A program made the translations under genes and the position numbers. Under the pieces are notes generated by a model, which saw only the letters and a list, made by a program, of their open reading frames with translations, was not told the DNA's origin and did no database searches. From assembly GCA_027310185.1 (NCBI GenBank), contig DAIDBH010000004.1, forward strand, positions 1 through 15,106: a DNA stretch of 15,106 nucleotides. Direction: 5' to 3'. Source of the stretch: Thermoplasmatales archaeon (GTDB lineage Archaea; Thermoplasmatota; Thermoplasmata; Thermoplasmatales; Thermoplasmataceae). Positions 3 through 15,106 of the stretch are shown here, one piece after another (position 1 is the stretch's first letter; every line of letters begins with the position of its first letter).

Positions 3-3000
3 ACAGGAGGGACATCTCCTTACACTTATGCATGGTACAATAGTGGGACATTAGAATCTTCCACGTCAAGTACATATACAACCTCATTCAGTAGTTCAGG
101 GACGTATGTTATCGAAGTGATAATCAAAGATGCCAACGGAAATAAGGCATACTACAACTTTACAGAAACTGTAAATGTCGATCCCTCAGTCAGCATCACA
201 TCCTCACAAAACCCAACAGATGTCGGTAATAGTGTTACATTCACGGCCTCAGCCTCTGGAGGATCAGGATCATATACTTATCAGTGGTATTATGCAAGCA
301 ATAACACAGCAATATCAGGAGCAACGGGATATGAATATACCAGATCTTTTAGCACATCGGGGACATACTCGTTTTATGTCATCATTCATGATGGCAATGG
401 CAATGCAGCCCAATCAAGCACATTGGACGAGACTGTAAATGCTGATCCGTCAGTAAGTATCTCTGAGTCTCCATCTCCAACAGATGTGGGAGTAAGCGTG
501 ACTTTTACGTCCTCAGCCTCTGGTGGTACTGGTTCTTATAATTATACATGGACGATAGACGGTAAAACCTATTACACGCAATCTGTGACAGTAGTATTCG
601 GCACCTCAGGGACATATACAGCACAACTAACTATAAGGGACACTCTTGGAGACACAGCAAGTGCATCAGAGAGCATAGTGGTCAATCAGGATCCAACAGT
701 AAGTATCAGTGCAGAATATTCAACTGTCTATTCAAAAACAAATGACACTCTCTCAGCCTCAGGAGATTACGGCACTGGCACTTACAATTATACATGGTAC
801 AATGGGACAACAATCATAGGATATGGGCATACCCTAATTTACAAGTGGGGATCAAAGGGCAATTACACGATCTCTGTAGAAATAAAAGACTCACTTGGAG
901 AGACATACACAACCAGTGTCATCATTCAGGTTGTACCACATCCTGACATTTTCATAGCAGGGCCATTAAAGGTAACAGTTGGGCAGTCAAACACGTGGTC
1001 TATGGTTGCATCTCATTTAACAATTAACGGTAATGTAGAATGGTACAATGACGGCACAAGTGCATCTGATACAACTCCATTCTTTACCTTCTCTTATCCT
1101 GTCGCAGACGTGAATGAAACCATCGAAGTCAGTTATGACGTGCAGGGAAAATACTACAATAGCACAATAACAATCCATGTGTATGGTAAACCTAAGGTAT
1201 CAATCAGCGAGACTGATCTCACAACCGATGTTGGACTGAGTGATTCATTCAGTGCAATTACCTCCTCAGGTACTCCTGGTTATACATTCGTATGGACTGT
1301 AGATGGGCAGTCATTCGACTCTCAGGACTTTACATACTCATTCAGTAGTTCAGGGACACATCTCGTAAAGGTAACTGCTACTGACGGTGACGGCGTCTCG
1401 GTCTCAGCAGAGGCTAACATAACTGTAAATGCTGATCCGTCAGTAACGATTTCTACCTCTAATAGCCAGTACGATCTCGGTTATTCCATAACATTCACAG
1501 CCTCGACAAAAGATGGCACTAGGTCATATACTTATCAGTGGTACCTGAACGGCAATGCAGTCTCAGGGGCAACGTCAAGCACTTATACAACCTCTTTCAC
1601 TGCCTCAGGCACTGATTCGGTATATGTGATCATTCAGGATAGTTTAGGTGTAAGTGCAACCTCTAATCATATCTCAGTAGATATCAAAAATCAACCAAGC
1701 GTAACGGTCTCAGCATCAAGGCATAATGCAGATACCGGACAGGTTATATCATTTGATTCAGCGGTCTTTAACGGTACAGGGCCGTACACTTATGAATGGT
1801 TCATAAATTCAGGGTCAGTATCAACCCAAGCCTCTTTCTCATATACCTTTACCACTGCTGGAACATATACAGTGAAACTCACGGTAACTGATTCAGATGG
1901 GTATTCTTCAAGTGCAAGTGTGACTGTTATTGTATCCTCTGATCCGTCCGTCTCAATCAGCACGCCGCATTCAAAAATTGATATTGGATATGCTGATTCA
2001 TTTTCAGCAGCTGCAACAGGAGGACTTTCTCCATATTCTTATGAATGGTTATATCTTGGCAATTCAATTTCTACCTCCTCCTCGTTATCTTACTCTTTCA
2101 ACAGTGCAGGAAATAAGACTATCGAGGTAATTATAACAGATGCAAACGGATACAATTCATACTCAAATATCACTGTTCTGGTAGTCTCCCATCCTTTTGT
2201 GCAGATAGGGGAAAAATACAACTCTTTAGATGTGAATGTACAGGATATTTTCACATCTACGGTTGAATATGGAAGTGCACCATACAACTACACATGGTAT
2301 GTCGGATCAGTGATTGTTGGATATGGATCTTCTCTTTCCCATACCTTTACCACTGCTGGAACATACACAGTCAAACTCACGGTAACTGATATAGATGGCT
2401 ATAAGTACACTGCTTCTAAAGGCGTTACTGTTGTTGCTTCTCCATCTGTAAGCATTCTCGCAAACTACCACGAGATAGATCAGGGGATGACTATTGATTT
2501 CCTCTCAGGAGTGCAAAATGGCACAGGGCCATACAACTACACATGGTCAATAGGCACTGTTGCTGTGGGCTATTCATCCTCGCTTTCCTATGCATTCAGT
2601 ACATCGGGGACGTATACTGTCTCTGTCACTGTGAAAGATTCATTTGGAGAATCAGGTAAAGCATCAATAACCATAACCGTAAACAGTCCTATTTCTGTTA
2701 GTGCTTCCGTAAAATACAATTCTATAGACGCTGGACAGAACGGTATCTTTACAGGTTCAGTAACAGGCGGTACAGGGCCATACAGTTATTCATGGGCGAT
2801 AGATGGAAATGTTATCAGTTCTCAGCAAATGCTTACTTATTCTTTCATCAATCCTGGTACCTATACAATCACATTCACTGCAACCGATTCGTTTGGAAAA
2901 TCAGCCTCTTACTCTCTGTCCATAAAAGTTAATCCCTCGCTCTCAGGGGCGTTGAATATCACATATACAACAGTGGATACCAATATTACTGACACGATCA

Positions 3001-4919
3001 CACTCACTGCAAAGAATGGTACAGGGCCGTACACTTATGCAATCCTGATCAATGGCAAGTTAGTATCTTCTATCGATTCATATTCTCAATATTTCACGTC
3101 TCCTGGCACTTTCCTCATATCAGCATACATAAATGATTCCTCAGGGCAAAGCATCCGGTTGACAGCTTCCATAGTGGTAAGGGCAAATCCCACTGTCTCC
3201 ATCGTATCTCCAACGAACAAAACAGACGTTAGCGATCTGACCAGTTTCAGAGGCATCCTTACAGGAGGCATAGGACCATATACATACTCATGGCTTGTAG
3301 CGGGGCATACCTATGCAAATTCAACTCTTTCGTATGCATTTCTCTCGACTGGCGAGTACACGGTGCAGCTAACAGTCACGGATGCATTCGGCAGGCAAGC
3401 AATCGCATCCATAAACGAAACAGTATTCCCAGATCCAACCGCAACGCTGGTAAAACCTGCACACATTGTAGCATCAGAGCAAACCCCTCTCTCTCTGAAC
3501 ATTTCCGGTGGAATTGCACCATTTAAGGTATCATGGGCATTCCCGGGAGGTGAACAGTTCTCCGGTAACGCCATAACCTATGCTTTCAGCTCATCAGGAC
3601 CAAATACATTCCAGGTTAGGGTGCAGGATGCCAGTGGATATACAGATACACAGAATTTCACTGTAAATGTTGGTTTATATGTTACCATCTCAGCAAATCA
3701 GACAAGAGGCATAGGGCCTCTATCAGTCCAATTCAGTTCATCCGTCCTAGGCGGATCAAGTTATTCATACAACTGGACATTCTCTCCAGGGCATTCGAGT
3801 TTAGAACCTAATCCCTCCTATACTTTTCCAGTGGGTAACTATACCGTGCATTTTACTGCAACCGCAAATAATGGGGCAATAGGCCAGAAAAACTTAACCA
3901 TACAGAGTCTACCAGAGCCAGTTACTTTCCTGTATAGCACTGATCTAAACATTACTCAGGCATTCCATTTCAGGGCTGTACCTAATTGGGATGCAGAGGC
4001 GCCATATTCAGCGTCATGGTCATTTCCCAACGGACAGCAACTTACGGGACTGAATATCTCTTATAAGTTTCCAGTATACTCAGAATTTAACAAGGTTCTG
4101 GCAACATTCACATTCAATGGAAAATCATACTCGCAAATCTTAACCGTCAGGATGATCCCTGCAAATCCGATCATATCTTTCAAACTACCTAAAATCATAC
4201 CTGTTGATACTCTTCTCTCTCTTAATGCAACAGCCTCAGCACCTGATTCGTCCTCATTCACATACCAGTGGACGATCAATGGGCATTTAGAATCAGGACA
4301 GGATCAGTTTTATTATTTCAGTTCAGTCAAAAATTACTCCGTCTCTCTTACTGTCACAGATTCGCTTGGTGCAACTACGACGATATCTCATTATATCGAT
4401 GTTGTAGCACTGGAGAGCAATACAACCATTGTGATCGGTTATCATCTAAAGACAATCGGGCCTGACGATTATTATACTATCAAAGTTCAGTCTACAGATG
4501 GGATTGACATTACAGAGGCATTTCTAGGGGATAACCAACTTACTCTTACTCTGATAAATGAGACAACCACATCCTCGGGCACAATCGCATATTACAATCT
4601 TACTCTCCTACAGTCAGATTATCCTGCTGGAACACACTCACTTAATGTAATTTCATTTAACTCTCAGTCTCAGAGTAATCATGTTACTATCCCATTTTCA
4701 GTGTCGAGTCAGTACTCATCTTCAAGTTTTTCCTTCGAGACAATCATTCAATTTTTCGGAGGATTCTCAAATTTCCTCGTGCTAATACTGACACTTGCAG
4801 GAGTTGTGATTGCATATTCTTCATTGAATAGGGAGGCAAATCCTGACGTGGTCATACAAGAGACAGGCAAAAAGGGAAAAACAAAGAGTGTAGTCCTGAA
4901 GGGCAGGAGGAAGAAATAA
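3..4919 (+). CDS. Giant PKD/Ig-like repeat surface protein with C-terminal membrane anchor (5'-truncated; adhesin or spike candidate)
   Basis: The frame is open from position 3 (TGGTSPYTYAWY...), so GTG at 117 is not the true start. About 17 complete ~83-aa repeats follow the pattern P-S-V-S-I...D-V-G...F...GGTGPYxYxW...SYTFxxxGTYxVxLTVTDxxG, plus a partial repeat at the window edge and a divergent last beta domain. It has many N-x-S/T sequons, a hydrophobic helix (FSNFLVLILTLAGVVIAY) and a basic tail (KKGKTKSVVLKGRRKK). Confidence 0.92.
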   Translation, partial: TGGTSPYTYAWYNSGTLESSTSSTYTTSFSSSGTYVIEVIIKDANGNKAYYNFTETVNVDPSVSITSSQNPTDVGNSVTFTASASGGSGSYTYQWYYASNNTAISGATGYEYTRSFSTSGTYSFYVIIHDGNGNAAQSSTLDETVNADPSVSISESPSPTDVGVSVTFTSSASGGTGSYNYTWTIDGKTYYTQSVTVVFGTSGTYTAQLTIRDTLGDTASASESIVVNQDPTVSISAEYSTVYSKTNDTLSASGDYGTGTYNYTWYNGTTIIGYGHTLIYKWGSKGNYTISVEIKDSLGETYTTSVIIQVVPHPDIFIAGPLKVTVGQSNTWSMVASHLTINGNVEWYNDGTSASDTTPFFTFSYPVADVNETIEVSYDVQGKYYNSTITIHVYGKPKVSISETDLTTDVGLSDSFSAITSSGTPGYTFVWTVDGQSFDSQDFTYSFSSSGTHLVKVTATDGDGVSVSAEANITVNADPSVTISTSNSQYDLGYSITFTASTKDGTRSYTYQWYLNGNAVSGATSSTYTTSFTASGTDSVYVIIQDSLGVSATSNHISVDIKNQPSVTVSASRHNADTGQVISFDSAVFNGTGPYTYEWFINSGSVSTQASFSYTFTTAGTYTVKLTVTDSDGYSSSASVTVIVSSDPSVSISTPHSKIDIGYADSFSAAATGGLSPYSYEWLYLGNSISTSSSLSYSFNSAGNKTIEVIITDANGYNSYSNITVLVVSHPFVQIGEKYNSLDVNVQDIFTSTVEYGSAPYNYTWYVGSVIVGYGSSLSHTFTTAGTYTVKLTVTDIDGYKYTASKGVTVVASPSVSILANYHEIDQGMTIDFLSGVQNGTGPYNYTWSIGTVAVGYSSSLSYAFSTSGTYTVSVTVKDSFGESGKASITITVNSPISVSASVKYNSIDAGQNGIFTGSVTGGTGPYSYSWAIDGNVISSQQMLTYSFINPGTYTITFTATDSFGKSASYSLSIKVNPSLSGALNITYTTVDTNITDTITLTAKNGTGPYTYAILINGKLVSSIDSYSQYFTSPGTFLISAYINDSSGQSIRLTASIVVRANPTVSIVSPTNKTDVSDLTSFRGILTGGIGPYTYSWLVAGHTYANSTLSYAFLSTGEYTVQLTVTDAFGRQAIASINETVFPDPTATLVKPAHIVASEQTPLSLNISGGIAPFKVSWAFPGGEQFSGNAITYAFSSSGPNTFQVRVQDASGYTDTQNFTVNVGLYVTISANQTRGIGPLSVQFSSSVLGGSSYSYNWTFSPGHSSLEPNPSYTFPVGNYTVHFTATANNGAIGQKNLTIQSLPEPVTFLYSTDLNITQAFHFRAVPNWDAEAPYSASWSFPNGQQLTGLNISYKFPVYSEFNKVLATFTFNGKSYSQILTVRMIPANPIISFKLPKIIPVDTLLSLNATASAPDSSSFTYQWTINGHLESGQDQFYYFSSVKNYSVSLTVTDSLGATTTISHYIDVVALESNTTIVIGYHLKTIGPDDYYTIKVQSTDGIDITEAFLGDNQLTLTLINETTTSSGTIAYYNLTLLQSDYPAGTHSLNVISFNSQSQSNHVTIPFSVSSQYSSSSFSFETIIQFFGGFSNFLVLILTLAGVVIAYSSLNREANPDVVIQETGKKGKTKSVVLKGRRKK
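1843..2390 (+). repeat. Near-identical 50-bp intragenic direct repeat (1843-1892 and 2341-2390)
   Basis: ATACCTTTACCACTGCTGGAACATA(T/C)ACAGT(G/C)AAACTCACGGTAACTGAT is 48/50 identical. Both differences are synonymous and the offset is 498 nt, equal to two PKD repeats. Confidence 0.9.
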
Positions 4920-4972
4920 AATGGATGGGTGGCAGGAGTGGGAAACGAAGCATAAAGGGGGTGATAAAGAAC

Positions 4973-5107
4973 ATGGCGGCAAGAAAAAATAAGAAAACAA
5001 CCGGAAGAAGAACCACAAGAAGCAGCAGAAGGACAGGCAAAAGCACTGCAAGAAGGACGACCAAAGGGAAGAAGTCTTCCGGAAAGAAATCGACCAGGAG
5101 GAGATAA
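4973..5107 (+). CDS. 44-aa protamine-like Arg/Lys/Ser/Thr-rich peptide (putative nucleic-acid condensing protein)
   Basis: An SD-like GGGGGTGA (4957-4964) precedes ATG 4973; an alternative start is at 4925. MAARKNKKTTGRRTTRSSRRTGKSTARRTTKGKKSSGKKSTRRR has 20 K/R, 15 S/T and no acidic or aromatic residues. Confidence 0.7.
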   Translation: MAARKNKKTTGRRTTRSSRRTGKSTARRTTKGKKSSGKKSTRRR

Positions 5108-5115
5108 ATTACTAA

Positions 5116-5160
5116 TGCCTGAGAAGGCAATTCAAAATTTTTAAAAATTTAATTATATAA
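5116..5160 (+). promoter_or_regulatory. Intergenic GNRA hairpin, AT-only palindrome and TATA-like box (possible internal promoter or terminator)
   Basis: TGCCT-GAGA-AGGCA at 5116-5129, perfect palindrome AAATTTTTAAAAATTT at 5135-5150, and TTATATAA at 5153-5160, about 30 nt before ATG 5192. Confidence 0.4.
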
Positions 5161-5191
5161 AATAGGGGGAACAGAAAAAAGAGGGAAAGGA

Positions 5192-5536
5192 ATGGAATTC
5201 AGAAAAGTTGGAACAGGAAGGAAAAGAAGGACCGCTCCCATAAAGGAGAGGAAGGCACGAAGGCACAGAGAGAAACATCTCACTCAAAGAGAAATGGAAG
5301 AAAGATCCTATGCAGGGATAAGACACCCTGGAAGCCTTACAAAATACGGTTACCATATCAATGGAAGCACGATGCAGAGAGAAACTGCCCTGGACAAGGC
5401 TACAAAGCGATATGGAAGAAAGTCAGTTCTTCAAAAGCTCAGCGATTTATACCGGTTAGATTACAACAAACCTGATCTTAGAGAAAATATCATCCAGGAT
5501 ATAAGGTACGTCAGCAAAGGAAAAAGGAGTGATTAA
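5192..5536 (+). CDS. Basic 114-aa protein, DUF5771-like motif, putative DNA-binding or virion core protein
   Basis: A very basic N-terminus is followed by PGSLTKYGYH...RETALDKATKRYGRKSVLQKL...D. The family assignment is from memory and unverified. Its stop abuts the next ATG. Confidence 0.75.
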   Translation: MEFRKVGTGRKRRTAPIKERKARRHREKHLTQREMEERSYAGIRHPGSLTKYGYHINGSTMQRETALDKATKRYGRKSVLQKLSDLYRLDYNKPDLRENIIQDIRYVSKGKRSD

Positions 5537-5827
5537 ATGGGAAAAATAACTGATGCGATAATTGCTATTCTTGTGCTGATAGTAGGTTTGTATGTACTTA
5601 CAAGACTTGGGATCACATGGTCAGGGATATGGAAAATGATCCATACATTCTTTTCCTCTTCATCTCCTGCAACAAATGGGACAGCTACGTCGATTATATT
5701 CGGAATGGCTGCAAGTAACAGCAAAGTTCGGGACAAGATTAAAAAAAGAAAAGAACAGCTTATCAGGCTATCAAAAATAAGAGAAATTAAGGGAATTATA
5801 AAAAGGAGAGTGAATCGACGTGCATAA
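5537..5827 (+). CDS. Small membrane protein (N-terminal TM helix, amphipathic segment, basic C-terminal helix); candidate envelope or matrix protein
   Basis: SD AGGAGTGA lies upstream. The sequence has a hydrophobic AIIAILVLIVGLYVL segment, an NGT sequon and a K/R-rich C-terminus. Confidence 0.8.
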   Translation: MGKITDAIIAILVLIVGLYVLTRLGITWSGIWKMIHTFFSSSSPATNGTATSIIFGMAASNSKVRDKIKKRKEQLIRLSKIREIKGIIKRRVNRRA

Positions 5828-6692
5828 GGCAGTACTTTCTATATTTATAGGGCTGTCCGTCGCCTTAATCTTATTTTCGTTGCCCGCTGTACCCTCCGGA
5901 CATCCCATTAATTCAGGGCATTACACTGATGACATATCTACTCCCGTCTCATCCCATGTCCAAATTTATTCTACTTATCCTGGCAGTCCACAATACGAGA
6001 TATATGTGCCCCTGAACTCGTCAGGATTTGCTGTTTATCCTATCTGGCATATATTCTTGTATGGAAATGGGGCATTTACATTATTAGCTGATGGTAGTCA
6101 GGTTGAAAGTGGCTTCTCTACTGGTGCTTATAATCTTTCATATACCTTTACAGGTGGGTATGCTAATGCAACACTGATTTTTAACGGAAAATACACTTTC
6201 CATGATTCTATTTCTTCTGAACTGACCGACCACAATATTCAGTCAGTCCAGGTATATTCCTCATATCCTGGACAGGCTCAATTTTTAACGGTGCAGAATG
6301 GAGTCTCAGGCGCATTAATGTACACGTATTGGACTGCTATACTGCAAAGTACTCAGAATGTGACCTATTCAATATATGTTGGAGGTCAATCGCTGGCATC
6401 AGGGTCATTTGTTGGGACAAAAACAATCAAATTCAATGTTACAGGTAGTTCAGCAACAGTTACTATTGGGGTTGGTAAAGAAGTCTACAGATACCCGTCT
6501 GAATTAATTTCATCCGTCCCAATTCAAAGATACTATGCTCCAAAACCTCCTGCTCTAGTATATACTGTGACCGAATATGAATATGGGATTGCAAGAGCAT
6601 TCGTTGCATCTTTATTTGCAGTTCTTGTTTTGCTTTTGAGTGTAAGAAAACTCGTTATGGAGAGAAATAAGAGGGAGGTGCATATATTATGA
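5820..6692 (+). CDS. Membrane-anchored beta-rich protein with signal or TM N-terminus, two tandem homologous domains and a C-terminal TM
   Basis: GTG start with SD AGGAG overlaps the upstream gene. N-terminal hydrophobic AVLSIFIGLSVALILFSL; internal repeat VQIYSTYPG versus VQVYSSYPG, 96 codons apart; C-terminal AFVASLFAVLVLLLSV followed by RK. Confidence 0.85.
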   Translation: MHKAVLSIFIGLSVALILFSLPAVPSGHPINSGHYTDDISTPVSSHVQIYSTYPGSPQYEIYVPLNSSGFAVYPIWHIFLYGNGAFTLLADGSQVESGFSTGAYNLSYTFTGGYANATLIFNGKYTFHDSISSELTDHNIQSVQVYSSYPGQAQFLTVQNGVSGALMYTYWTAILQSTQNVTYSIYVGGQSLASGSFVGTKTIKFNVTGSSATVTIGVGKEVYRYPSELISSVPIQRYYAPKPPALVYTVTEYEYGIARAFVASLFAVLVLLLSVRKLVMERNKREVHIL

Positions 6693-7513
6693 GCTGGAGA
6701 GAGAACAGAAGAGAGAAGAAGTTGATCAAAGATGCCAAAAAACAGGGACTTAATGTTGTCCCAGGTTCTTCCCCTGATGAGAAAGTCAGGAGAGCTGTGG
6801 AGAAATTCAGCTCATGGAGGGAAATCTTAAAGAATTCTATCCCGCAGCTGCTGATTTCTATTTTACTCCTGTATGTGGAATATGAGATAATTGGGCTAAT
6901 CTATACACTCATTTCTGTAGCCGTATATGCCCCCCTCATATTCTTCTATTCTAAATCCCTCATAGAAAAAAGAGGACGATATCTACTGGTTGTCTCAATT
7001 GACAAGGGATCCACTGAGATCACCAGGTATCTGATACCGGATGAGCTCTGGGATTTGATCGAATTTGATCATCCTCTTGTGCCAGGAATGATCCGCTTCA
7101 ATGGCCGTGACACATTCCTTGGAACTAAGGTGTGGACATTAGATGGGACAAATCAGATCTACAAGGTAAAATTGTCATGGTTCCATTTCAACCAGCTGGA
7201 ATATCTAAGGAATAGAGGAATATTAGAACGAGCCATCGCATTCTCCACCCAGCTAAGTCTTGAGAATGCAGAACTCGAAAAGCTAAAAGAATTCCTTGCG
7301 GTGGTCGAAGGAAAGAGACAGACCAAGGAGAGACTGGATCTGATAGACAAGGCATACAGAGAAGATCCTGTGGAATTGAAGAAGAGGATACTCAAGGTTC
7401 AAAGCAGGATAGATGAGCTGGCGCAGTCTAATAGAGATCTACTCGCAGGATATGAAGAGTCGGAGGAGAAGGAAGAAAGAGAAAAGGAGGTGGAAAATGA
7501 TATACAGAATTAG
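6689..7513 (+). CDS. Membrane protein with TM hairpin, soluble beta domain and C-terminal coiled coil
   Basis: ATGA overlap and SD GGAGGTG. Hydrophobic LLISILLLYV and IIGLIYTLISVAVYAPLIFFY segments, and a heptad-like VELKKRILKVQSRIDELAQSNRDLL. Confidence 0.85.
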   Translation: MSWRENRREKKLIKDAKKQGLNVVPGSSPDEKVRRAVEKFSSWREILKNSIPQLLISILLLYVEYEIIGLIYTLISVAVYAPLIFFYSKSLIEKRGRYLLVVSIDKGSTEITRYLIPDELWDLIEFDHPLVPGMIRFNGRDTFLGTKVWTLDGTNQIYKVKLSWFHFNQLEYLRNRGILERAIAFSTQLSLENAELEKLKEFLAVVEGKRQTKERLDLIDKAYREDPVELKKRILKVQSRIDELAQSNRDLLAGYEESEEKEEREKEVENDIQN

Positions 7514-7775
7514 TGGTAATATCAAATCCGCAGATGTGTATCAGGCAATAGAGGATATTATTTTTGAGTCACCAGAACTAAAGAATAACGTCTGGCTTAA
7601 CCATAGAAAGGAGATGATAGAAGTGATTGAGAATGAGGATGCCAGAGCTCCCCCTCTCTCTCTTTTGTTCGATGAGGGAGTAATGATCGAGAGACAGGAT
7701 GGCGTATCTTTAATAGACATCCTGATTGATGAGATCAGGGAAAAGGCAAAGAAGGAGGAGACAGAAGATGAATGA
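7497..7775 (+). CDS. Small acidic hypothetical protein (92 aa)
   Basis: Start reassigned from 7413 to ATG 7497 on SD AAGGAGGTG. It overlaps both neighbours in operon fashion. Confidence 0.7.
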   Translation: MIYRISGNIKSADVYQAIEDIIFESPELKNNVWLNHRKEMIEVIENEDARAPPLSLLFDEGVMIERQDGVSLIDILIDEIREKAKKEETEDE

Positions 7776-8175
7776 ACAGGACACGCTGAAAGGTCCAAAC
7801 CTTACGTACTACCTGCTTTTGAAAGCCTCGGAATATCCAGGAGAAACAACCCACAGTGTACGAGGGGCATTCATGTGGGGAGAAAAATTGAAGGCAGTGC
7901 ACCATAATCTTTCATATTCGCACAGGGAAGATGATGAATACCTGAATGAATATATGAGGATTAAGGAGAAGATCGATCAGATTTCTAGAGACTACTATCC
8001 GTCTGAAAGGTATGTCATGGAAGCATACGAAATACTTCACGAGTGGCTGGGCAGCTTATCAAGGCTGTATTACAGGCTTGGAATGATGGCTAATGAGAGT
8101 CCGAGACAGCTGGAGTGGAATCAAGAAAGTGTTACTAGAGTAACAGAAACAGGAGGTGAAAAGAATGGGAGATGA
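7768..8175 (+). CDS. Alpha-helical hypothetical protein (135 aa), probable paralog of next gene
   Basis: Start reassigned to ATG 7768 on SD AAGGAGG. Motif AYEILHEWLGSLSRLYYRLGMM. Confidence 0.75.
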   Translation: MNEQDTLKGPNLTYYLLLKASEYPGETTHSVRGAFMWGEKLKAVHHNLSYSHREDDEYLNEYMRIKEKIDQISRDYYPSERYVMEAYEILHEWLGSLSRLYYRLGMMANESPRQLEWNQESVTRVTETGGEKNGR

Positions 8176-8572
8176 TGATTTTGCACCTACAGTGGGAGAA
8201 AAATCTCTTGCCAAGCTCTATGATCAGGCAACAACACTTCTGGCTGCAGGACCACTGGTAAGAAGTGTAAATCAGTTGAAGTACGTGCTCTCTGCCATGG
8301 ATCTGGTTCTCGGTCCTCTGTCAGCTGCAAATATGGACTTCCAGCAGGCTAAGACATATATTTATACCCAGCTAAAGGAAGCGCAAGAGAAGGAGGGAAG
8401 AAAGGCCATAGTGGAAAATGCACCTCTTACATTTACTATACTTCAGGACTGGTTCGAAGAGCTGAACAAGGTGATCGATGACAACAATCTGCTGTTTGCT
8501 TCCTCATCGGTATATCAGGAAACCTATTCCGACAAATATGATGGAGGTGATGAAGATGAAGCTACCGTTTGA
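8165..8572 (+). CDS. Alpha-helical hypothetical protein (135 aa)
   Basis: Start reassigned to ATG 8165 on a perfect SD AGGAGGTGA at 8151-8159. Motif TFTILQDWFEELNKVIDDNNLL. Confidence 0.78.
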   Translation: MGDDDFAPTVGEKSLAKLYDQATTLLAAGPLVRSVNQLKYVLSAMDLVLGPLSAANMDFQQAKTYIYTQLKEAQEKEGRKAIVENAPLTFTILQDWFEELNKVIDDNNLLFASSSVYQETYSDKYDGGDEDEATV

Positions 8573-9407
8573 AGATCCTGAATATTCTAAAGGGAGATAC
8601 AACACCTGGCTTATGCCCTGGATTCGCAAGAGGATTGCACACAACATGGATGTCCTTGCCCTTGTTGTTGGCCCAAGGGGAAGTGGAAAATCCTACTCAG
8701 CCCTGGAACTGGCCCATACATGTGATTCAACATTCAATCAGGAGAAGGTATTCTTTGATGTTACCGAATTCGTGGACTATATCATTGACGGTAAATTGTC
8801 CAAAGGAAATGCAGCAATCCTGGACGATGCCGGAGTATTCATGAATTCCAGGGACTGGCGGTCCATACAGAACAAGGCCATATCCATTGTAGCCCAGTCA
8901 TTCAGATACAAGAACCTGATCACATTCATTACAGTTCCCAAGGAAAACTATATCGATGCCCAGACTCGAGGGTTATTCAACATTACTTTTGAAGCTACAG
9001 ATGAACAGGGTGTATTCAAGGTGAAGCTCCCAAAGCCCAATCCTTTCAGGAGAGGAGAGGACATGCTGGTATATCCAAGGGAGCAGGTTCCCACAAAGGG
9101 GTTGAGAACCAGAACCATTACTGTCAAGACTACAAAATTCCATCTGCCTCCGCAGTGGCTGATTGACCAGTACGAGGCGAAGAGGGACATCGAGATAAGA
9201 AAGAAGCAGAAGGAGGTTCAGGATCAGCTGCATTCAATTGGAAGGGAGAAGAATAACAATGGATCGTCAAAGAAGGGAAGAAATCCAAATTCAATCAAGA
9301 ACCTTAAGCAATTCAGAGGCAAAAAGCAGCAAGGAGAGAACACCGAAAGCCCCACCGATAGAAAACAAGTATCATCCGAGGTTTCTCCCGAAACCTATAG
9401 CCACTGA
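8556..9407 (+). CDS. P-loop NTPase, Zot/pI-like (FtsK-HerA-related) genome extrusion or packaging ATPase candidate
   Basis: SD GGAGGTGA at 8543-8550 precedes ATG 8556. Walker A is GPRGSGKS (8670-8693) and Walker B is AILDDAG. The downstream FRYKNLITFITVP...IDAQTR parallels the R-H/K-x-x-hhhh-T...ID-x-x-x-R pattern of Zot/pI-type ATPases. Confidence 0.85.
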   Translation: MKLPFEDPEYSKGRYNTWLMPWIRKRIAHNMDVLALVVGPRGSGKSYSALELAHTCDSTFNQEKVFFDVTEFVDYIIDGKLSKGNAAILDDAGVFMNSRDWRSIQNKAISIVAQSFRYKNLITFITVPKENYIDAQTRGLFNITFEATDEQGVFKVKLPKPNPFRRGEDMLVYPREQVPTKGLRTRTITVKTTKFHLPPQWLIDQYEAKRDIEIRKKQKEVQDQLHSIGREKNNNGSSKKGRNPNSIKNLKQFRGKKQQGENTESPTDRKQVSSEVSPETYSH

Positions 9408-9616
9408 CATGTTACCTACATATAAAACAGTCAAAGATGATTGCGTCATGCTCATGAACTTAGGGAAATTGAAATTTGGAGGAGAAATGAAAGAGAGTGA
9501 AATTTGGAATTTAGAAGGAGGGTGAACTAAACGATGCCGATAAGGCCTTGATTAAACTTAGAGGGATATAACTAATAACAAACCAGTAAGAAAAAATAAA
9601 TTTGGAGGAATAAGAA

Positions 9617-10642
9617 ATGGTAGAGAAATGGATTACAAAAAAAGATGGAATGAATGAAAGTAAGCATGTTAAAATAGAGACGTCTAAAAAGACAAGGGAA
9701 GTCATGGTATCTAAAATGGAACCCTCTGCAGGCCAGCTTGAGAAACAGGCATGGGCTATCCTTGGAGATCTCTCTAAGGTTACAACAGTTGATCAGCTGC
9801 TGCTGAGTATGAAGAAATACAGCGGCACACTGGGAAACTACTCGGGAGAAAACTCAATGCTGATCTATATGCAGAATCCAAATGCAACCATAGTCAGATC
9901 GGCCACAGAATGGAAATACTTTGGAAGGGAGGTAAAGCCGGGAGCTCATAAGATGAGCGTGCTGTTTCCCATAGGCATACCGCAGAAAGCAGGACCTGGT
10001 AAACTGAAGGACTTCATGGAGAAGAAGAGGGAAGAGGGATTGAGCGACGAGGCCATAGCGCAGCTTGTAAAGGAGAAATTCAACCTCGAGGGAGATACCG
10101 CATACCACTTTGGCGTTGGCAGTGTATATGATATCAGGGATACCGAGCCTATTCCAGGAAAGCCCCAGAAGCCGGAAGATGAAACAATCAAGGCACAAAC
10201 ATTCTACAAGGATCTGAAGGAGATTGCAAAGAAGCACTATATCGTTCAGGAGGATTCAATAGCCGGAGTGCATGGTGCCAGAGGATACACTGCACATTCA
10301 TCTGATGGGGAAGGGCAGAGGATCGTTGTTATGAAGGTGCCAGGAGAAGATGAGAACGTGCTGCATACATTGATTCATGAAATGTCCCATGCAAGGCTCG
10401 ATCACCTGAAAAGGAAGGATATCCCAAGGGGTATTGCAGAATCAGAGGCGGAACTTTCAACCTACCTTGTTGGAGCGCACTTCGGTTTTGACTTCAAGGA
10501 TGACAGTGCTGCATACATAAAGGGATGGCTCGATGATCCTCAAAACAAAGGGAAGAAGCTGGATAAGGAAAACTTAGACAGGGTTTTGAACAATGCCAGA
10601 TGGCTGATCAACCAGATAACTAATAAGATTGGCAGCCAGTAA
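9617..10642 (+). CDS. ArdC-like protein: N-terminal ssDNA-binding domain plus C-terminal zincin-like metallopeptidase (HExxH)
   Basis: NYSGENSMLIYMQNPNAT...EWKYFGREVKPG fits the ArdC-N/DUF1738 pattern. TLIHEMSH...ESEAELSTYLVGAHFG...SAAYIKGW fits the ImmA/IrrE/MPTase-like pattern. SD GGAGG. Confidence 0.85.
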   Translation: MVEKWITKKDGMNESKHVKIETSKKTREVMVSKMEPSAGQLEKQAWAILGDLSKVTTVDQLLLSMKKYSGTLGNYSGENSMLIYMQNPNATIVRSATEWKYFGREVKPGAHKMSVLFPIGIPQKAGPGKLKDFMEKKREEGLSDEAIAQLVKEKFNLEGDTAYHFGVGSVYDIRDTEPIPGKPQKPEDETIKAQTFYKDLKEIAKKHYIVQEDSIAGVHGARGYTAHSSDGEGQRIVVMKVPGEDENVLHTLIHEMSHARLDHLKRKDIPRGIAESEAELSTYLVGAHFGFDFKDDSAAYIKGWLDDPQNKGKKLDKENLDRVLNNARWLINQITNKIGSQ

Positions 10643-10654
10643 GAAATCTAAAAT

Positions 10655-10719
10655 GCAGAAAAACCAGTCAATCATTTTATCTCAGATAGGCTGGATTTTC
10701 TGCCATCATATTTATTTTT
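10655..10719 (+). terminator. 19-bp imperfect inverted repeat followed by a T-rich tract downstream of the ardC-like gene
   Basis: GCAGAAAAACCAGTCAATC (10655-10673) and GATAGGCTGGATTTTCTGC (10685-10703) are 16/19 complementary with an 11-nt loop, followed by TTTATTTTT (10711-10719). Confidence 0.5.
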
Positions 10720-10746
10720 GATCTACTATGAAAGAAGTTTTTTGAT

Positions 10747-10886
10747 CGTACTCCATAACGTGTGGAGTACGGGTCCGGGAAAGGCTGCCGATTTGTTCTT
10801 TGAGTCCTGAACTCGTGTAAAAGGTTGGCAGCTTACGGATCGACACCATGCCTCGAAAGAGACGAATAGTAGAGTGTTTACCGACC
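10747..10886 (+). ncRNA. Putative IS110 bridge RNA (5' hairpin, target-binding loop, donor-binding loop)
   Basis: Hairpin CGTACTCCA/TGGAGTACG (10747-10771). Stem AGGCTGCCGA/TTGGCAGCTT encloses the inner hairpin GAGT-CCTGA-ACTC. A second module has the inner hairpin TGCCTC-GAAA-GAGACG flanked by GACACC and ATAGTAG, which match the donor junction. Transcript boundaries are approximate. Confidence 0.7.
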
Positions 10887-10921
10887 ACATATTTCCCGGA
10901 ATTACCATAGGAGGTAACAGA

Positions 10922-12067
10922 ATGTATATAGGAATAGACGCACATAAACTTAGCGAATCCGTATGTGTTACGGATAAGGTTGGAACTATACTGGAAGAGT
11001 ACAAAATGGACAACAGTGAAGAGAACTGGAATAAGTTCATGAAGAAATACAGTAAAGATGATGCAGAGATTGCCGTTGAATCATCAACATCAGGAAAGTA
11101 TGTTGCCCATCTGTTGAGGGATAATGGATTCCATCTGCACCTTGCAAACCCAAAGGAGTTGAAGCCAGTATTCAAATCAAACAAGAAGACGGATAAGAAT
11201 GATGCAAGGATTCTTGCAAGGCTTCTCCGTACGGGTGATCTTCCTGAATCATACCTTCCCTCAAAGGAGGTTGATGAACTGAGAACAGCCGTAAGATACA
11301 GGAGGTCTCTTGGAGAGGAGATCACCTCCATAAAGAATAAGGTCCATGCTCTCCTTGCAATTCATGGCATCAGCATAGAGGCTTCAGACATTTTCGGAAA
11401 GAGATCACTGGGCAAAATACTTGCCTCTTCGGACGGGCTTCCGGAAACAGACAGCATCATACTGACAGATCTGATCTCCAGGTTCAGTGATCTGTCACTG
11501 AGGATAGAAAAGATGCAGGATAAGCTTGCATCCATGGGAAATGGCATTGAAGAGGTGAAAACACTCATGACAATACCAGGGATAGATTACTACAGTGCAA
11601 TAGCAATATACTCTGAAATAGGAGACATAAAACGTTTTCCTGACGCTGATCATCTATCTTCATATGCAGGCCTTGTTCCCCGTGTGGATCAAAGTGGAGA
11701 AACTGCAATTTATGGGCACATAACAAAATCCGGTCCATCTGTATTGAGATATTTCATTGTGAATTCGGTACATACACTGATCAAGCTATCGCCAACATTC
11801 AAGAGAGTGTACAGAAAGATGAAGAAGAGGATCGGAAGGAACAGATCAATTATAGCAGTGGCAAGGAAACTTGCCGTTGTCATATATAACATGCTTGAAA
11901 AGAAGAAAGAATTCGTGGAGGAACATGCGTTTAAAACACTGAAGGAGAAGAAGCTGAAGAACATGGCAGCAAGATCTGCAATATCTCATGGATTCAGCAG
12001 GGAAGACATGGAAAATGTAATTAAGGATATTGGAATTCGTTCAAAGTCAACAAGACTTCTTTCATGA
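10922..12067 (+). CDS. IS110-family transposase/recombinase (DEDD RuvC-like plus Tnp20 domain), 381 aa
   Basis: SD GGAGGT at 10910-10915 precedes MYIGIDAHK. Catalytic motifs are GID, AVES and KTDKND. C-terminal motifs are TIPGI...EIGDIKRF and YAGLVPRVDQSG (conserved Ser), plus AVARKL. Confidence 0.95.
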   Translation: MYIGIDAHKLSESVCVTDKVGTILEEYKMDNSEENWNKFMKKYSKDDAEIAVESSTSGKYVAHLLRDNGFHLHLANPKELKPVFKSNKKTDKNDARILARLLRTGDLPESYLPSKEVDELRTAVRYRRSLGEEITSIKNKVHALLAIHGISIEASDIFGKRSLGKILASSDGLPETDSIILTDLISRFSDLSLRIEKMQDKLASMGNGIEEVKTLMTIPGIDYYSAIAIYSEIGDIKRFPDADHLSSYAGLVPRVDQSGETAIYGHITKSGPSVLRYFIVNSVHTLIKLSPTFKRVYRKMKKRIGRNRSIIAVARKLAVVIYNMLEKKKEFVEEHAFKTLKEKKLKNMAARSAISHGFSREDMENVIKDIGIRSKSTRLLS

Positions 12068-12081
12068 CACCTTATCTGTTT

Positions 12082-12130: not shown

Positions 12131-12538
12131 GTGATTACTGCGGAAGAATGCCAGAGTAGAAAATCATCCGCAAGGATTAATTTAAAAACCAAAACACTAC
12201 TCCGGGAGTGGGATAGGCTTCATAGTAGAGGCAGGAAGAGATCCTATGAAGAGATAATCACTGCGCTTTTAGAAAGGGACAGAAACAAATCAAATGCATT
12301 CTTCAATCTTAATCTCCCAGTTGTTGACAGATTCATTCTCACCCTGATAGAAGATGGAGTAAAGACATCAAAGGTTATTCTGACCAGGCTTAAGAAGGAA
12401 AATTTTAACATCTCCTTGAGATCGCTTCAGTCTCACCTGGAATACCTTACCAGAGACAATCTGATTATAAGAAAAAGGAAAGACTATGGAAATGAATACG
12501 AATATTTCATCTCAAATTATGAGAAAGCATTAGAATAA
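12131..12538 (+). CDS. DNA-binding regulator: RHH-like N-terminus fused to winged-helix C-terminal domain
   Basis: SARINLKTKTLL...SYEEIITALLE has a strand-helix-helix pattern. VDRFILTLI...TSKVILTRL...ISLRSLQSHLEYLTRDNLIIRK...EYFI has a wHTH pattern. The GTG start is uncertain. Confidence 0.75.
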   Translation: MITAEECQSRKSSARINLKTKTLLREWDRLHSRGRKRSYEEIITALLERDRNKSNAFFNLNLPVVDRFILTLIEDGVKTSKVILTRLKKENFNISLRSLQSHLEYLTRDNLIIRKRKDYGNEYEYFISNYEKALE

Positions 12539-12732: not shown

Positions 12733-12760
12733 ACATGTCAAAATGCACATTTTGTCATGT
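12733..12760. other. 28-bp 11-6-11 inverted repeat; candidate tyrosine-recombinase (dif/res-like) site
   Basis: ACATGTCAAAA-TGCACA-TTTTGTCATGT has arms 10/11 complementary and lies 110 bp upstream of the recombinase gene. Confidence 0.55.
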
Positions 12761-12808
12761 CATGAAACCTGCTTTGACTGTTTATTTATATACCAGTCCA
12801 ATTAATCA

Positions 12809-12849
12809 GTAAGAGATCTCTTACAGCACTAACCGGAAACCTATTTAAA
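12809..12849 (+). promoter_or_regulatory. Perfect 16-bp palindrome plus archaeal BRE/TATA promoter for a leaderless recombinase transcript
   Basis: GTAAGAGATCTCTTAC at 12809-12824. GGAAAC is followed by TATTTAAA at 12842-12849, centred ~25 nt before ATG 12870, and there is no SD. Confidence 0.6.
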
Positions 12850-12869
12850 GAGTTAGATAATGTCATGTT

Positions 12870-13502
12870 ATGGCTTTGCCCATCCCAAAGAACATGATGA
12901 TCCAATCAAGTGGAAGATCTCTGTCAATAGATTTTTTTTCAGATGATGAAGTTAAGAAGATCTTTCATGAGATATCTGAAAAGATCAATACAGATAAAAA
13001 GAGAACAGATAAACATAAGCGGTATTTTCTACTGGTTGAATTTCTATATAGAACAGGCGGGAGAATAGATGAAGTTCTCCTGGTTAAACCGTCCGATGTG
13101 AATCTGGCCACAAATTCGATCAGAATGAAGACACTTAAACAGGGCAAAGATAAGAACGGCATTCAAAGAGAGAAATACAGAATTATACCATTGCATTTGG
13201 AATTAAGGGATGCATACATGCAGTATCTACTTGACATGAACATTTCAACAAAATCTGAGGATCCTTTATTTCCAATGTCGAGGCAGGTTGTAGATCTTTA
13301 TTTTAAGAAGATGCAGGATAAACTTGGCTTTAAGGTTCATGCCCACAAGTTCAGGCATACCTTTGCAGTTAAGGCCATAATGGATAATGTGCCATTGAAT
13401 ATATTGCAGCAATGGTTAGGCCATTCATCTGTTTTTACAACATCGATATATACTCAGATAACAGGAATGGATACTTCAGAGTTTATGGAAAGGGTGAAGT
13501 GA
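12870..13502 (+). CDS. Tyrosine recombinase (catalytic domain only, resolvase/Xer-like), 210 aa
   Basis: Full catalytic set: TGGRIDE (R), LKQG (K), HKFRH (H-x-x-R), WLGH (H) and TSIYT (Y). There is no room for an N-terminal core-binding domain. Confidence 0.93.
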   Translation: MALPIPKNMMIQSSGRSLSIDFFSDDEVKKIFHEISEKINTDKKRTDKHKRYFLLVEFLYRTGGRIDEVLLVKPSDVNLATNSIRMKTLKQGKDKNGIQREKYRIIPLHLELRDAYMQYLLDMNISTKSEDPLFPMSRQVVDLYFKKMQDKLGFKVHAHKFRHTFAVKAIMDNVPLNILQQWLGHSSVFTTSIYTQITGMDTSEFMERVK

Positions 13503-13537: not shown

Positions 13538-13700
13538 CTGACATACTCTCCTCGCTAAAGCATCGGAGGTTCTAAGGTCGCTATCACTCATAACGTTGCC
13601 TCTCAAGGGATATCAGTGTTCCCTTTGCACGCATCACTGTCTACATGCAATCGATCTATGCCTTTCTCAAATGCTGGACGCAACGCTATGTTGAATGAAG
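13518..13700 (-). ncRNA. Predicted TnpB omegaRNA/reRNA (3' end of tnpB, right end and flanking guide)
   Basis: Inferred from established IS200/IS605 biology. The scaffold ends at TCAG and the guide is the adjacent flank ATCTGCAACTAATGTG.... The 5' boundary cannot be determined from sequence. Confidence 0.5.
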
Positions 13701-14604: not shown

Positions 14605-15014
14605 ACCCCTTTCTGCTCCTCTATGTATTTTTTTACAACCTCAAGTGTTACTGCACCCACGGAAGAAATGAATTTCGAATGTGTCCACAGGGTTGGAAGC
14701 TTTCTCTTAAGTTCTGGGAACTCATTTCGCAGGACGAACGAACTGTACCCCTTAATCTGATTGACAACGTGATATACACCACACTTTGGATTGATGTCTA
14801 TCAAGAGATGTACATGATCGGGCATAACTTCCATTTCAAGTATCTTGTACTGGTATTCATCCTGCTTCTCCATAATTAGCTCTTTTAGTCTCAGATCGAT
14901 GCCATCCTTCAGGACGCTTCTTCTGTATTTGGGACAAAATATTACATGGTATTGACAACTGTACACCATATGCGACTCATGATGATATTCCTTTTCCTTA
15001 TTACTTATTTCCAT
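14601..15014 (-). CDS. tnpA: IS200-type Y1 HUH transposase
   Basis: YHVIFCPKYRR, HUH motif DHVHLL, IKGYSS, and catalytic Tyr in VKKYIEEQ. Confidence 0.96.
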   Translation of the reverse strand: MEISNKEKEYHHESHMVYSCQYHVIFCPKYRRSVLKDGIDLRLKELIMEKQDEYQYKILEMEVMPDHVHLLIDINPKCGVYHVVNQIKGYSSFVLRNEFPELKRKLPTLWTHSKFISSVGAVTLEVVKKYIEEQKGV

Positions 15015-15106
15015 CTATCAAATATGATATACCATTCTTGTTAAAATACTTATCGCAATTCATCTCCTCTCTAAAGATCGGAGCTTTCTTGCTCATAAAT
15101 TTGTAA

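Follow-up and report, generated by a model that had tools for sequence, protein, structure and literature searches.

The window considered here is the complete contig DAIDBH010000004.1 (C2; 15,106 bp) of a Thermoplasmatales archaeon whose assembly (GCA_027310185.1) consists of 19 contigs totalling 1.88 Mb and is 99.5% complete. Positions 3–10642 are occupied by eleven co-oriented genes in the order giant PKD-repeat surface protein, two very basic small proteins, three membrane proteins, three small soluble proteins, P-loop ATPase and ArdC-like protein, and these are followed by an insertion sequence (IS), a small basic protein, a tyrosine integrase and a second IS (Table 1). A six-frame listing of open reading frames (ORFs) recovers all eleven genes on the plus strand in the order that an initial annotation, made from the sequence alone, had given them. 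The close packing it described between 5192 and 9407 is borne out, each junction there either abutting or overlapping by 4 to ~35 nt. The window starts inside the PKD gene, the 5' end of which lies beyond the contig. We conclude that the window is very likely part of an integrative mobile element, and consider it somewhat more probable than not that this is a fragment of a new spindle-virus-like integrative element whose conserved core would be a morphogenesis module of the spindle-virus type. Contigs of the window's own genome are denoted C without a genome prefix, fetched loci are denoted L, and genomes G.

Table 1. Features of the 15,106-bp window (aa, amino acids; TM, transmembrane; wHTH, winged helix-turn-helix; pI, isoelectric point).
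Feature	Position	Strand	Basis or remarks
Giant PKD surface protein, candidate adhesin	3-4919	+	5'-open, 1638 aa; Pfam PKD_4
g60, very basic low-complexity 60-aa ORF	4925-5107	+	Composition
g114, basic 114-aa soluble protein	5192-5536	+	DUF5771, pI 10.5
g96, small membrane protein	5537-5827	+	N-terminal TM, basic tail
g290, type I membrane glycoprotein-like	5820-6692	+	Signal/TM, two Ig-like domains, C-terminal TM
g274, membrane protein	6689-7513	+	Hydrophobic hairpin
g120, small acidic soluble protein	ORF 7413-7775, likely start 7497	+	Homologues 85-100 aa
g149, soluble protein	ORF 7726-8175, likely start 7768	+	Conserved in related loci
g138, small acidic protein	8156-8572	+	Homologues in C6-like elements
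TM-less P-loop (ASCE) ATPase	ORF 8478-9407, likely start near 8538	+	phrog_5484
ArdC-like protein	9617-10642	+	HEMSH motif; sub-threshold ArdcN, MPTase-PolyVal
IS110-family insertion sequence	10719-12073	+	DEDD_Tnp_IS110, Transposase_20
g135, small basic protein, possible winged-helix regulator	12131-12538	+	Sub-threshold wHTH matches
Promoter/operator-like region	12733-12872	+	13-nt inverted repeat, repeated motif
Tyrosine integrase, 210 aa	12870-13502	+	Phage_integrase 4.2e-22
IS200/IS605: TnpB 13603-14604, TnpA 14601-15014	13603-15014	-	Cas12f1-like_TNB, Y1_Tnp

Sequence comparison places the ATPase in the family that includes fusellovirus B251, His1 ORF16 and the ATPase of the Haloferax virus LSV-48N. 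It has a Walker A motif (GPRGSGKS) and a Walker B motif (ILDDAG), lacks a TM segment, and matches phrog_5484 (E = 5.8e-12) across positions 8–237 of 239. This profile represents the fusellovirus B251 family, as SSV1 B251 itself matches it at 5e-101, and it is also matched by the ATPases of LSV-48N, of a paralogue on C6 and of the L025 orthologue. An alignment of 18 family members (A1) scores 90.8% against SSV1 B251 in hhalign (E = 1.2e-6 over 184 columns), the two having in common a C-terminal LPxW..YE.kR stretch, and the family scores 90.9% against His1 ORF16. A hidden Markov model (HMM) built from 12 locus sequences finds LSV-48N (3.3e-41), SSV1 B251 (6.4e-11) and His1 ORF16 (3.2e-6), and the negative control, VP8 of HRPV-1, has an hhalign score of 1.3% and no HMM match. 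Among 50,697 phage and virus records searched by tblastn, the window ATPase matches LSV-48N only, and the L025 ATPase matches only LSV-48N and Sulfolobales Mexican fusellovirus 1; identity to the LSV-48N ATPase is 27–31% in these searches. None of 72,556 plasmids contains a match to the ATPase, and g290 likewise has no match in the plasmid collection. The nearest Atlas clusters of the ATPase are 65–92% viral with AAA/Zot labels, Zot being assigned to 12–17% of members.

The window thus contains a TM-less ATPase of the B251/ORF16 type found in spindle-shaped archaeal viruses, and we regard it as a candidate genome-packaging or extrusion motor. An AlphaFold2 model (mean predicted local distance difference test score, pLDDT, 71) has a generic ASCE fold for which the top Foldseek match is the N-terminal domain of Zot (2R2A; E = 1.4e-5, TM-score 0.46 on the target), with RFC, RuvB and RAD51 close behind. 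Pfam Zot is matched weakly in 6 of the 18 family members (best E = 0.017), and comparison of the ATPase profile with Protein Data Bank (PDB) sequences gives a best E of 1e-3, confined to the P-loop. The combination of P-loop, TM segment and periplasmic or C-terminal domain that characterizes inovirus pI/Zot proteins is not seen. Some family members carry a C-terminal helix-turn-helix.

The gene arrangement is more than chance, its order recurring in at least 16 other loci. The consensus, derived from tblastn and ORF clustering of the fetched loci, is PKD-g114-(k7)-g96-g290-g274-g120-g149-ATPase-(ArdC-like)-(small TM)-integrase, and it is present in related genomes (L024, L025, L026, L029, L030 and L031), in metagenome contigs (L032 and L034–L041), and in the further genomes G116 (three loci), G129 and G155. 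The gene k7, encoding 320–390 aa, is found in seven related loci and is absent from the window. A profile scan of genome contigs with the ATPase alignment yielded no confirmed relatives, which a search of the genomes then did find. Labels on the homologues bear out the Thermoplasmatales-type host that had been proposed.

The distribution of the module is patchy. The g290 gene is found in 16 of 169 genomes of the order, so that about one in ten carries a member of this element family, and it is spread over 12 of 37 genera and present in one of the 16 other genomes of the same genus. The ATPase gene is more widespread (30/169) and the gene for hyd1, a small hydrophobic protein encoded upstream of the adhesin gene in relatives (see below), slightly less so (13/169). 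The genes for hyd1, g290 and the ATPase occur in that order on one contig at ten places in seven genomes. These loci are linked to integrases, to MCM or primase genes and to methyltransferases, and the fuller relatives carry a variable replication module that the window, which begins within the adhesin gene, lacks. Two of the findings that would have told against the proposal of the initial annotation were a core-chromosomal cluster shared at a fixed site by every relative and a housekeeping S-layer or secretion locus; the distribution agrees with a mobile module and with neither of these.

Several loci show the element in its chromosomal setting. In the complete genome G116 the element is present twice, 29.4 kb (29,432 bp) apart, as 19,026-bp copies with 99.8% identity (G116:C1, about 1810700–1859160; L051–L054), each with an MCM helicase gene (Pfam MCM, 4e-43) and the whole module, and one with an integrase gene beside it. 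In G155 an integrated copy lies near a tRNA-Pro gene together with an integrase, an intein-bearing DUF5131 protein and an HNH nuclease. The DUF5131 protein is of the phage Gp37/Gp68 type (L050:9613-11571), its intein contains a LAGLIDADG domain, and the HNH nuclease gene adjoins it. Copies of the window integrase with 88% identity sit beside the module in L024 and beside the ATPase gene in L022. The sole CRISPR array found in the window's own genome (C19:28255-29473; 36-nt repeat, 16 spacers) includes a 37-nt spacer, number 16, that matches the contig of a related element (L024:3661-3693) from a different species of the genus, 31 of the 33 aligned bases being identical (E = 4.7e-8). Against the window itself no spacer of the array scores above chance level; the best alignment agrees at 16 of 17 bases (E = 0.65). 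No flanking direct repeats were found in G116 or G129.

Recombination between element types is evident in the window. The g138 and ATPase genes are 73–77% identical to those of a second element type, of which one representative is on C6 of the same genome (C6:46268-57999; L001) and others are in G004, G011 and G019 (L018, L019 and L020). The window ATPase has only 37–41% identity to its counterparts in the remaining adhesin-g290 loci. In the second type the ATPase is accompanied by a 421-aa integrase, a 130-aa protein, a 110-aa TM protein, a 661-aa membrane protein and a small TM protein, as well as a 590–880-aa P-loop protein of primase-helicase-like appearance, and the element has the same flanking genes in C6 and in G011. 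The last ~30 residues of g149 deviate from the conserved C-terminus (…RLGLMIPENLTYTEGGEEGI) of 10 of its 11 relatives, and the deviation falls exactly at the switch to the g138-ATPase pair of the second type. Because the identity switches at the g149/g138 junction, we regard the window element as a recombinant of the two types, and the best explanation of the window as a whole is that it represents the 3' two-thirds of an integrative, mosaic element.

The giant PKD protein was placed in the module by the initial annotation, and this is upheld by its conservation, its C-terminal anchor and the presence of orthologues with 59–61% identity at the same position. It matches Pfam PKD_4 (4.7e-81) across 11 stretches, with tandem PKD/Ig-like domains followed by a non-PKD C-terminal region. 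Hydropathy predicts a single C-terminal TM segment at residues 1580–1610 with a Lys/Arg-rich tail, and there are 36 N-x-S/T sequons. The orthologue in L024 is 58.6% identical over 1155 aa and that in L029 61%, both at the equivalent position, and a complete form in L035 is 1589 aa long with an N-terminal signal anchor. It has no sequence similarity to SSV1 VP4, although it is placed like the terminal adhesin of spindle viruses, and it is a candidate adhesin.

Three of the remaining proteins are predicted to be anchored in the membrane. The g96 product has a TM segment at residues 1–31, a loop rich in Ser and Thr that bears a single sequon, and a C-terminal helix of strongly basic character (pI 11.7), and BLAST clustering shows it to be conserved in six loci. 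The g290 product starts with a signal or TM segment, continues with two Ig-like beta-sandwich domains in tandem, and ends in a TM helix followed by a short basic tail; its 46 homologues are all either unnamed or labelled Thermoplasmatales. Its AlphaFold2 model (pLDDT 77.7) places the two Ig-like sandwiches between the signal peptide and the TM helix, and the Foldseek matches listed are generic Ig-like proteins only (Fc receptors, titin, filamin). In both G116 copies g290 is split into two ORFs. The g274 product has a TM-like hairpin at residues 53–92 and a charged C-terminal half that is probably a coiled coil. Its gene lies directly 3' of g290 in at least 13 loci, and in the Atlas it has only its own cluster above 0.9.

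Searches of Pfam, PHROGs and NCBIfam yield nothing above noise for g60, g96, g290, g274, g120, g149 and g138. The g60 ORF encodes 60 residues with 25 Lys or Arg and no Asp or Glu (pI 12.0); it is possibly a DNA-condensing protein, has no homologue in the related loci, and may not be a gene. The g114 product, also basic, contains a conserved motif (GIRHPGSL..GYH) and matches DUF5771 at 2.9e-6 (27.9 bits against a cut-off of 26.2). The same domain is matched in four of the five other g114 members scanned (E from 5e-6 to 8e-5), one of the four scoring above the cut-off, and the gene is kept directly 3' of the adhesin gene in the related loci. We consider it a candidate DNA-binding or internal protein; a limited literature search found no paper on DUF5771.

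The g120 family has ten members. In the related loci g149 always lies directly 5' of the ATPase gene (alignment A5, 12 sequences), and tblastn gives 40–52% identity to four loci. The g138 protein, which is 75% identical to its counterpart in L019 and 57% to that in L022, is shared only with C6-like elements of the second type and is absent from the other loci with the adhesin-g290 module. No similarity is found between g149 and SSV1 A153, and hhalign comparisons of g149, g120, g138 and g274 with SSV1 A153, B277 and C102, LSV-48N proteins 21 and 22, and His1 ORF17 and ORF18 all score below 2%. A predicted complex of the ATPase with g149 scored 0.00 in a run that had no controls, and has no bearing either way.

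In L025, L035, G116 and G155 the adhesin gene is preceded by genes for a 390–470-aa membrane protein and for two or three small hydrophobic proteins. One of these, hyd1, has 69 homologues that are 48–99% conserved and carry labels such as Thermoplasma, Cuniculiplasma and Caldiplasma. It consists of a variable leader-like N-terminus and a conserved region of ~85 aa that contains two hydrophobic segments and has an acidic tail, and a paralogue adjoins it, an arrangement that recalls the fusellovirus VP1/VP3 pair. These upstream hydrophobic proteins of the relatives, which the window lacks, are the best coat-protein candidates. No match to hyd1 below E = 0.3 is found among PDB sequences. By sequence, hyd1 is not recognized as a capsid protein of the VP1/VP21 type, of ~80 aa with two hydrophobic helices, and the window has no such gene. 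No capsid, terminase, relaxase or VirB4 family was found in the window, as originally remarked, and the flanking proteins scanned in the fuller relatives add none.

Several described systems offer parallels, among them the Fuselloviridae. SSV1 has a large terminal TM-anchored adhesin with many N-glycosylation sequons, one or more small basic DNA-binding proteins and several small TM proteins, and B251 is listed in the absolute core of the fuselloviruses, where it and A154 are implicated in replication and packaging (PMC9608457). The window has a B251-family ATPase whose gene is followed by the integrase gene as in SSV1, an anchored, sequon-rich candidate adhesin, and small basic and small TM proteins, and full-length relatives have a comparable element size of ~20 kb. 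It differs in that no similarity is detectable to VP1/VP3, VP2, VP4, A153/A154, B277, C166 or any other SSV1 protein, in the PKD-repeat structure of the adhesin, in its short 210-aa integrase, and in having a euryarchaeal acidophile rather than a member of the Sulfolobales as host.

LSV-48N has the closest viral ATPase, and its ATPase gene is followed, one gene later, by a short integrase gene of 206 aa. Its virions are described as lemon-shaped, yet none of its ORFs is reported to resemble a known capsid protein (PMC12714723); the element described here similarly has no recognizable capsid gene. No other protein is common to the two, the best match being that of g290 to a 143-aa Ig-like protein (E = 0.006 in a 67-protein set), and LSV-48N has a haloarchaeal host. 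His1 (Halspiviridae) has in ORF16 a homologous ATPase with a C-terminal helix-turn-helix like that of some members of the window family, and also encodes several small TM proteins in a row, after which come two proteins that have a signal peptide and are anchored at the C-terminus. It is, however, a linear virus with a protein-primed polymerase and no integrase, and its capsid protein VP21 has no detectable relative here.

The wyrdviruses proposed for Asgard archaea are similar in layout. Their genomes of ~15 kb are described as containing one or more capsid genes, a receptor-binding adhesin, five conserved genes of unknown function and an AAA+ ATPase that lacks TM segments as B251 does and is most like inovirus pI, from which the authors deduce an extrusion-like assembly (10.1101/2021.07.29.453957). 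As far as can be judged from this description, the order of adhesin, conserved block of about six genes and TM-less ATPase is the same, whereas the wyrdviruses have recognizable His1-like capsid proteins and the present family has none. The likeness to inoviruses lies in the Zot matches and labels of the ATPase given above; the window ATPase lacks a TM segment and a C-terminal membrane domain, its weak matches are tied with RFC, RuvB and RAD51, and no other inovirus gene is present in the window.

Three things carry the spindle-virus reading: a single homologous hallmark gene, the layout of the genes and the way the module is distributed. Gene content, operon-like overlaps, predicted topology, ATPase homology to three kinds of spindle virus, synteny, patchiness, mosaicism, tandem copies and one spacer match are directly seen; functional roles, particle formation and particle shape are inferred. 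The element is probably a piece of an undescribed virus family that leaves the cell without lysis. We envisage that its DNA would be condensed by small basic proteins, namely g114 and perhaps g60, together with the basic tail of g96, which is anchored in the membrane, and that the B251-type ATPase, with g120, g149, g138 and the membrane protein g274, would bring it to an assembly site at the cell membrane. A particle would form there and exit through the membrane without lysis, built in full-length relatives presumably of the two or three small, highly conserved upstream hydrophobic proteins. The PKD protein and the two-Ig-domain g290 would be displayed on the particle and bind the next host, the ArdC-like protein may aid survival of the incoming DNA, and the tyrosine integrase would put the element into the chromosome. 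The module had been proposed at the outset to be a structural and extrusion module for a DNA-carrying membrane particle. Membership of the ATPase in the B251/His1-ORF16 family of non-lytic spindle-shaped viruses fits the extrusion part of that proposal, the particle itself stays conjectural, and what the window holds is a partial module. The accompanying view that the gene combination has no described relative was too strong, given that both the ATPase and the layout match spindle-shaped viruses.

A number of observations weigh against this reading. No homologue of a known capsid protein is detected, and hyd1 (alignment A3) scores 0.4% against His1 VP21 and 0.2% against SSV1 VP3 in hhalign. 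The hyd genes are absent from the window and no hyd1 gene is found in its own assembly. The other ten module families have no convincing match to SSV1, LSV-48N, His1 or HRPV-1 proteins, the match of g96 to VP21 being weak (E = 0.019 in a 28-protein set). The fold of the ATPase is generic, with VIA-align tying RecA-, VirB4- and AAA-type proteins, and in Thermoplasmatales the ATPase also sits in the second element type with other neighbours. A B251-type ATPase and A154 are further reported on pSSVx, a plasmid-virus hybrid satellite (PMC9608457), so the ATPase alone is no proof of an autonomous virus. Two checks suggested with the initial annotation were also unfavourable: neither the ATPase nor the g290 alignment found a relative among the viral contigs of IMG/VR, and a search for circularity revealed no terminal overlaps in any of four related contigs tested. 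To these points may be added the ArdC-like protein, considered with the plasmid alternative below.

A distinct question is the state of the window copy, which may be defective or only partly assembled because it has no upstream genes and contains two IS elements. That it is a dead remnant or satellite, having lost its coat genes and being either confined to the integrated state or mobilized with the help of an intact relative, in the way that SSV2 mobilizes pSSVx, is a serious possibility that we nevertheless place somewhat below an even chance. The contig begins inside the adhesin gene, and hyd1 is missing from an assembly that is nearly complete; in addition to the two insertions, the g138-ATPase segment was acquired from the other element type and k7 is missing. 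Yet all eleven ORFs are intact with overlaps suggestive of translational coupling, and a break inside a PKD repeat gene is to be expected from short-read assembly, the left contig end lying in the repeat gene and overlapping no other contig. A g274 protein identical to that of the window is on record from a 1.93-Mb contig elsewhere, so that a near-identical strain may harbour the element integrated in full.

The main rival reading, which we think unlikely though worth weighing, takes the element as a whole for an integrative plasmid of non-viral nature, passed on through cell contact or inside membrane vesicles. In that case the PKD protein and g290 would serve cell-cell adhesion, the hyd proteins of full-length relatives would be pilin-like or form a vesicle coat, the ATPase would act as a DNA pump, and ArdC would shield the DNA once it is in the recipient. 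ArdC-like proteins are known chiefly from conjugative plasmids, of which they are typical, and the one here matches ArdcN and MPTase-PolyVal at sub-threshold levels. The long leader-like N-terminus and two hydrophobic helices of hyd1 are pilin-like, this being also the build of VirB2-type pilins. The want of a known capsid protein and of IMG/VR relatives would suit a plasmid, as would the B251-like ATPases of pSSVx as described in PMC9608457. VIA-align ranks VirB4 first for the ATPase model (Z = 11.1), but this is tied with the RecA-like UvsX and with FlaH at Z ~11. Pfam, NCBIfam and PHROG searches of the 17 window proteins reveal no VirB4-sized ATPase, VirD4/TraG or relaxase family, and none was found among the ten flank proteins scanned in each of L025, L024, G155 and G116; an ordinary conjugative system encoded in the flanks, the finding that was to have overturned the original proposal, is thus not seen in these loci. 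The sole trace of type IV secretion is a sub-threshold Relaxase_C match (0.0043) in one L025 protein. The ATPase, moreover, has relatives in three kinds of spindle virus and none among the plasmids searched, where g290 is also absent.

Relationship to the pleolipoviruses, one of the affinities originally suggested, is not supported, and we consider it improbable that the element is a pleomorphic enveloped virus of this kind. Its gene order (small membrane protein, anchored surface protein, membrane protein, small proteins, NTPase) and predicted topologies do mirror the VP3-VP4-ORF6-ORF7-VP8 map of HRPV-1, and fusion-type entry would suit hosts without a cell wall, which several genera of the host group lack. 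No sequence or profile similarity to HRPV-1 is found for any protein, however, and this extends to the NTPase, which is not of the VP8 type by the control comparison given above. None of the module families matches VP3, VP4, ORF6 or ORF7 at E < 0.29 in the 28-protein set, and g290 and g96 have no HMM match to VP4 and VP3. The g290 model is generically Ig-like with no viral fusion or spike protein among the matches listed, though a missing fold match does not exclude a family, and HRPV-1 has no counterpart of either the giant adhesin or the hyd genes. Finally, a non-mobile chromosomal island for cell-surface adhesion, comprising a host S-layer-like PKD protein with accessory membrane proteins, is scarcely credible: PKD-rich surface proteins are reported to be common in archaea of these habitats (PMC5498576) and a second, small PKD gene lies on the adjoining contig C15, but the patchy distribution, the linkage to integrase, MCM or primase and methyltransferase genes, the tandem near-identical copies in a complete genome, the viral-type ATPase and the CRISPR spacer match to a relative all speak against it.

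Under the spindle-virus reading, a bolder version can be formulated, which we put forward tentatively and would not expect to prove correct in full. The element would represent a new family of viruses of cell-wall-less or acidophilic Thermoplasmatales, related to LSV-48N, with a coat unrelated to the SSV/His1 capsid and made of the hyd1/hyd2 pair, which resembles a conjugative pilin in its leader and two hydrophobic helices, with extrusion of the B251/pI-like kind, and with an adhesin tip of ~18 PKD domains. Were this novel-coat version true, the family would connect, in its mechanism, the extrusion of inoviruses or conjugative pili with the spindle-shaped viruses; a new principle would be involved only if the hyd proteins turn out to form a new coat. 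If particles are made, assembly of the spindle type with a B251 ATPase would extend to another major archaeal lineage, and the elements would point to a possible new coat protein family and provide a handle for identifying the capsid of LSV-48N. Few viruses are known for Thermoplasmatales, and IMG/VR is without a relative of the module in our scans. A 2026 survey of archaeal proviruses gives 30 provirus regions for Thermoplasmatota and Nanobdellota together (PMC13573593), and a limited literature search under Thermoplasmatales spindle-shaped virus, provirus or fusellovirus found no published description of the element. The order hyd1-adhesin-g290-ATPase is a usable search signature.

The ArdC-like protein contains the motif HEMSH and matches phrog_1365 (2.8e-6), with ArdcN (5.9e-4; 20.5 bits against a cut-off of 22.6) and MPTase-PolyVal (1.5e-3; 19 against 27.5) both below threshold. 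MPTase-PolyVal is matched in two of four other members and ArdcN in none of the four. It is 82% identical to the L025 counterpart, has no PDB sequence match, and from its sequence would comprise a putative single-stranded DNA-binding N-terminal domain and a zincin HExxH peptidase; it is a candidate anti-restriction or entry protein. An ATPase 98% identical to that of the window and an ArdC-like protein of the same 90% cluster (P0001 and P0210) are encoded on a 34.5-kb contig that its source labels Candidatus Parvarchaeum, reflecting either a binning error or an element in a DPANN symbiont of these hosts.

A regulator and a tyrosine recombinase were said to follow the module. The recombinase is real, with a secure Phage_integrase match (Table 1), and the regulator is weak, g135 having sub-threshold wHTH matches only (Rio2_N, 0.0058; HTH_12, 0.0098) and no homologue in the fetched loci. 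The IS110 element between the ArdC-like gene and g135 had been overlooked, as had the IS200/IS605 pair. Two features of the region preceding the integrase gene reach as far as its start codon, a 13-nt inverted repeat (ACATGTCAAAATG / CATTTTGTCATGT) and a recurring TGTCATGT(C/T)ATG motif. The region is 77.8% identical in nucleotide sequence to C6:54052-54245, and this conservation beside the C6 element makes it a likely operator. A second gene like that of the 210-aa integrase is split, its upstream region and first 17 codons lying in C6:54052-54245 and residues 20–210, 74% identical, on C5:442-1014. Integrase genes of the SSV type are split on integration; at the break of the C6/C5 gene no shared core (att) sequence was seen, and the 210-aa gene of the window is intact.

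Both insertion sequences are readily assigned to their families. The IS110 transposase matches DEDD_Tnp_IS110 (1.6e-27) and Transposase_20 (1.1e-20), each above its cut-off, and this element is a later insertion that lies outside the module. Its two ends are 99–100% identical to the ends of C17 and C14, and a second copy therefore joins those contigs. The IS200/IS605 element (Y1_Tnp, 3.7e-42; Cas12f1-like_TNB, 4.4e-23) is either a later insertion or a neighbour. No tRNA gene and no Rfam family was found in the window. Its last 141 bp (14966-15106) are identical to C15:1-141 (L003), and C15 encodes a 369-aa secreted PKD protein and a wHTH protein related to one on the L024 element contig. A 95-aa ORF at 9238-9525 spans the 3' end of the ATPase gene and the gap before the ArdC-like gene, and its last 42–63 residues resemble an ORF near another integrase on C12 (40–45% aa and 72% nt identity).

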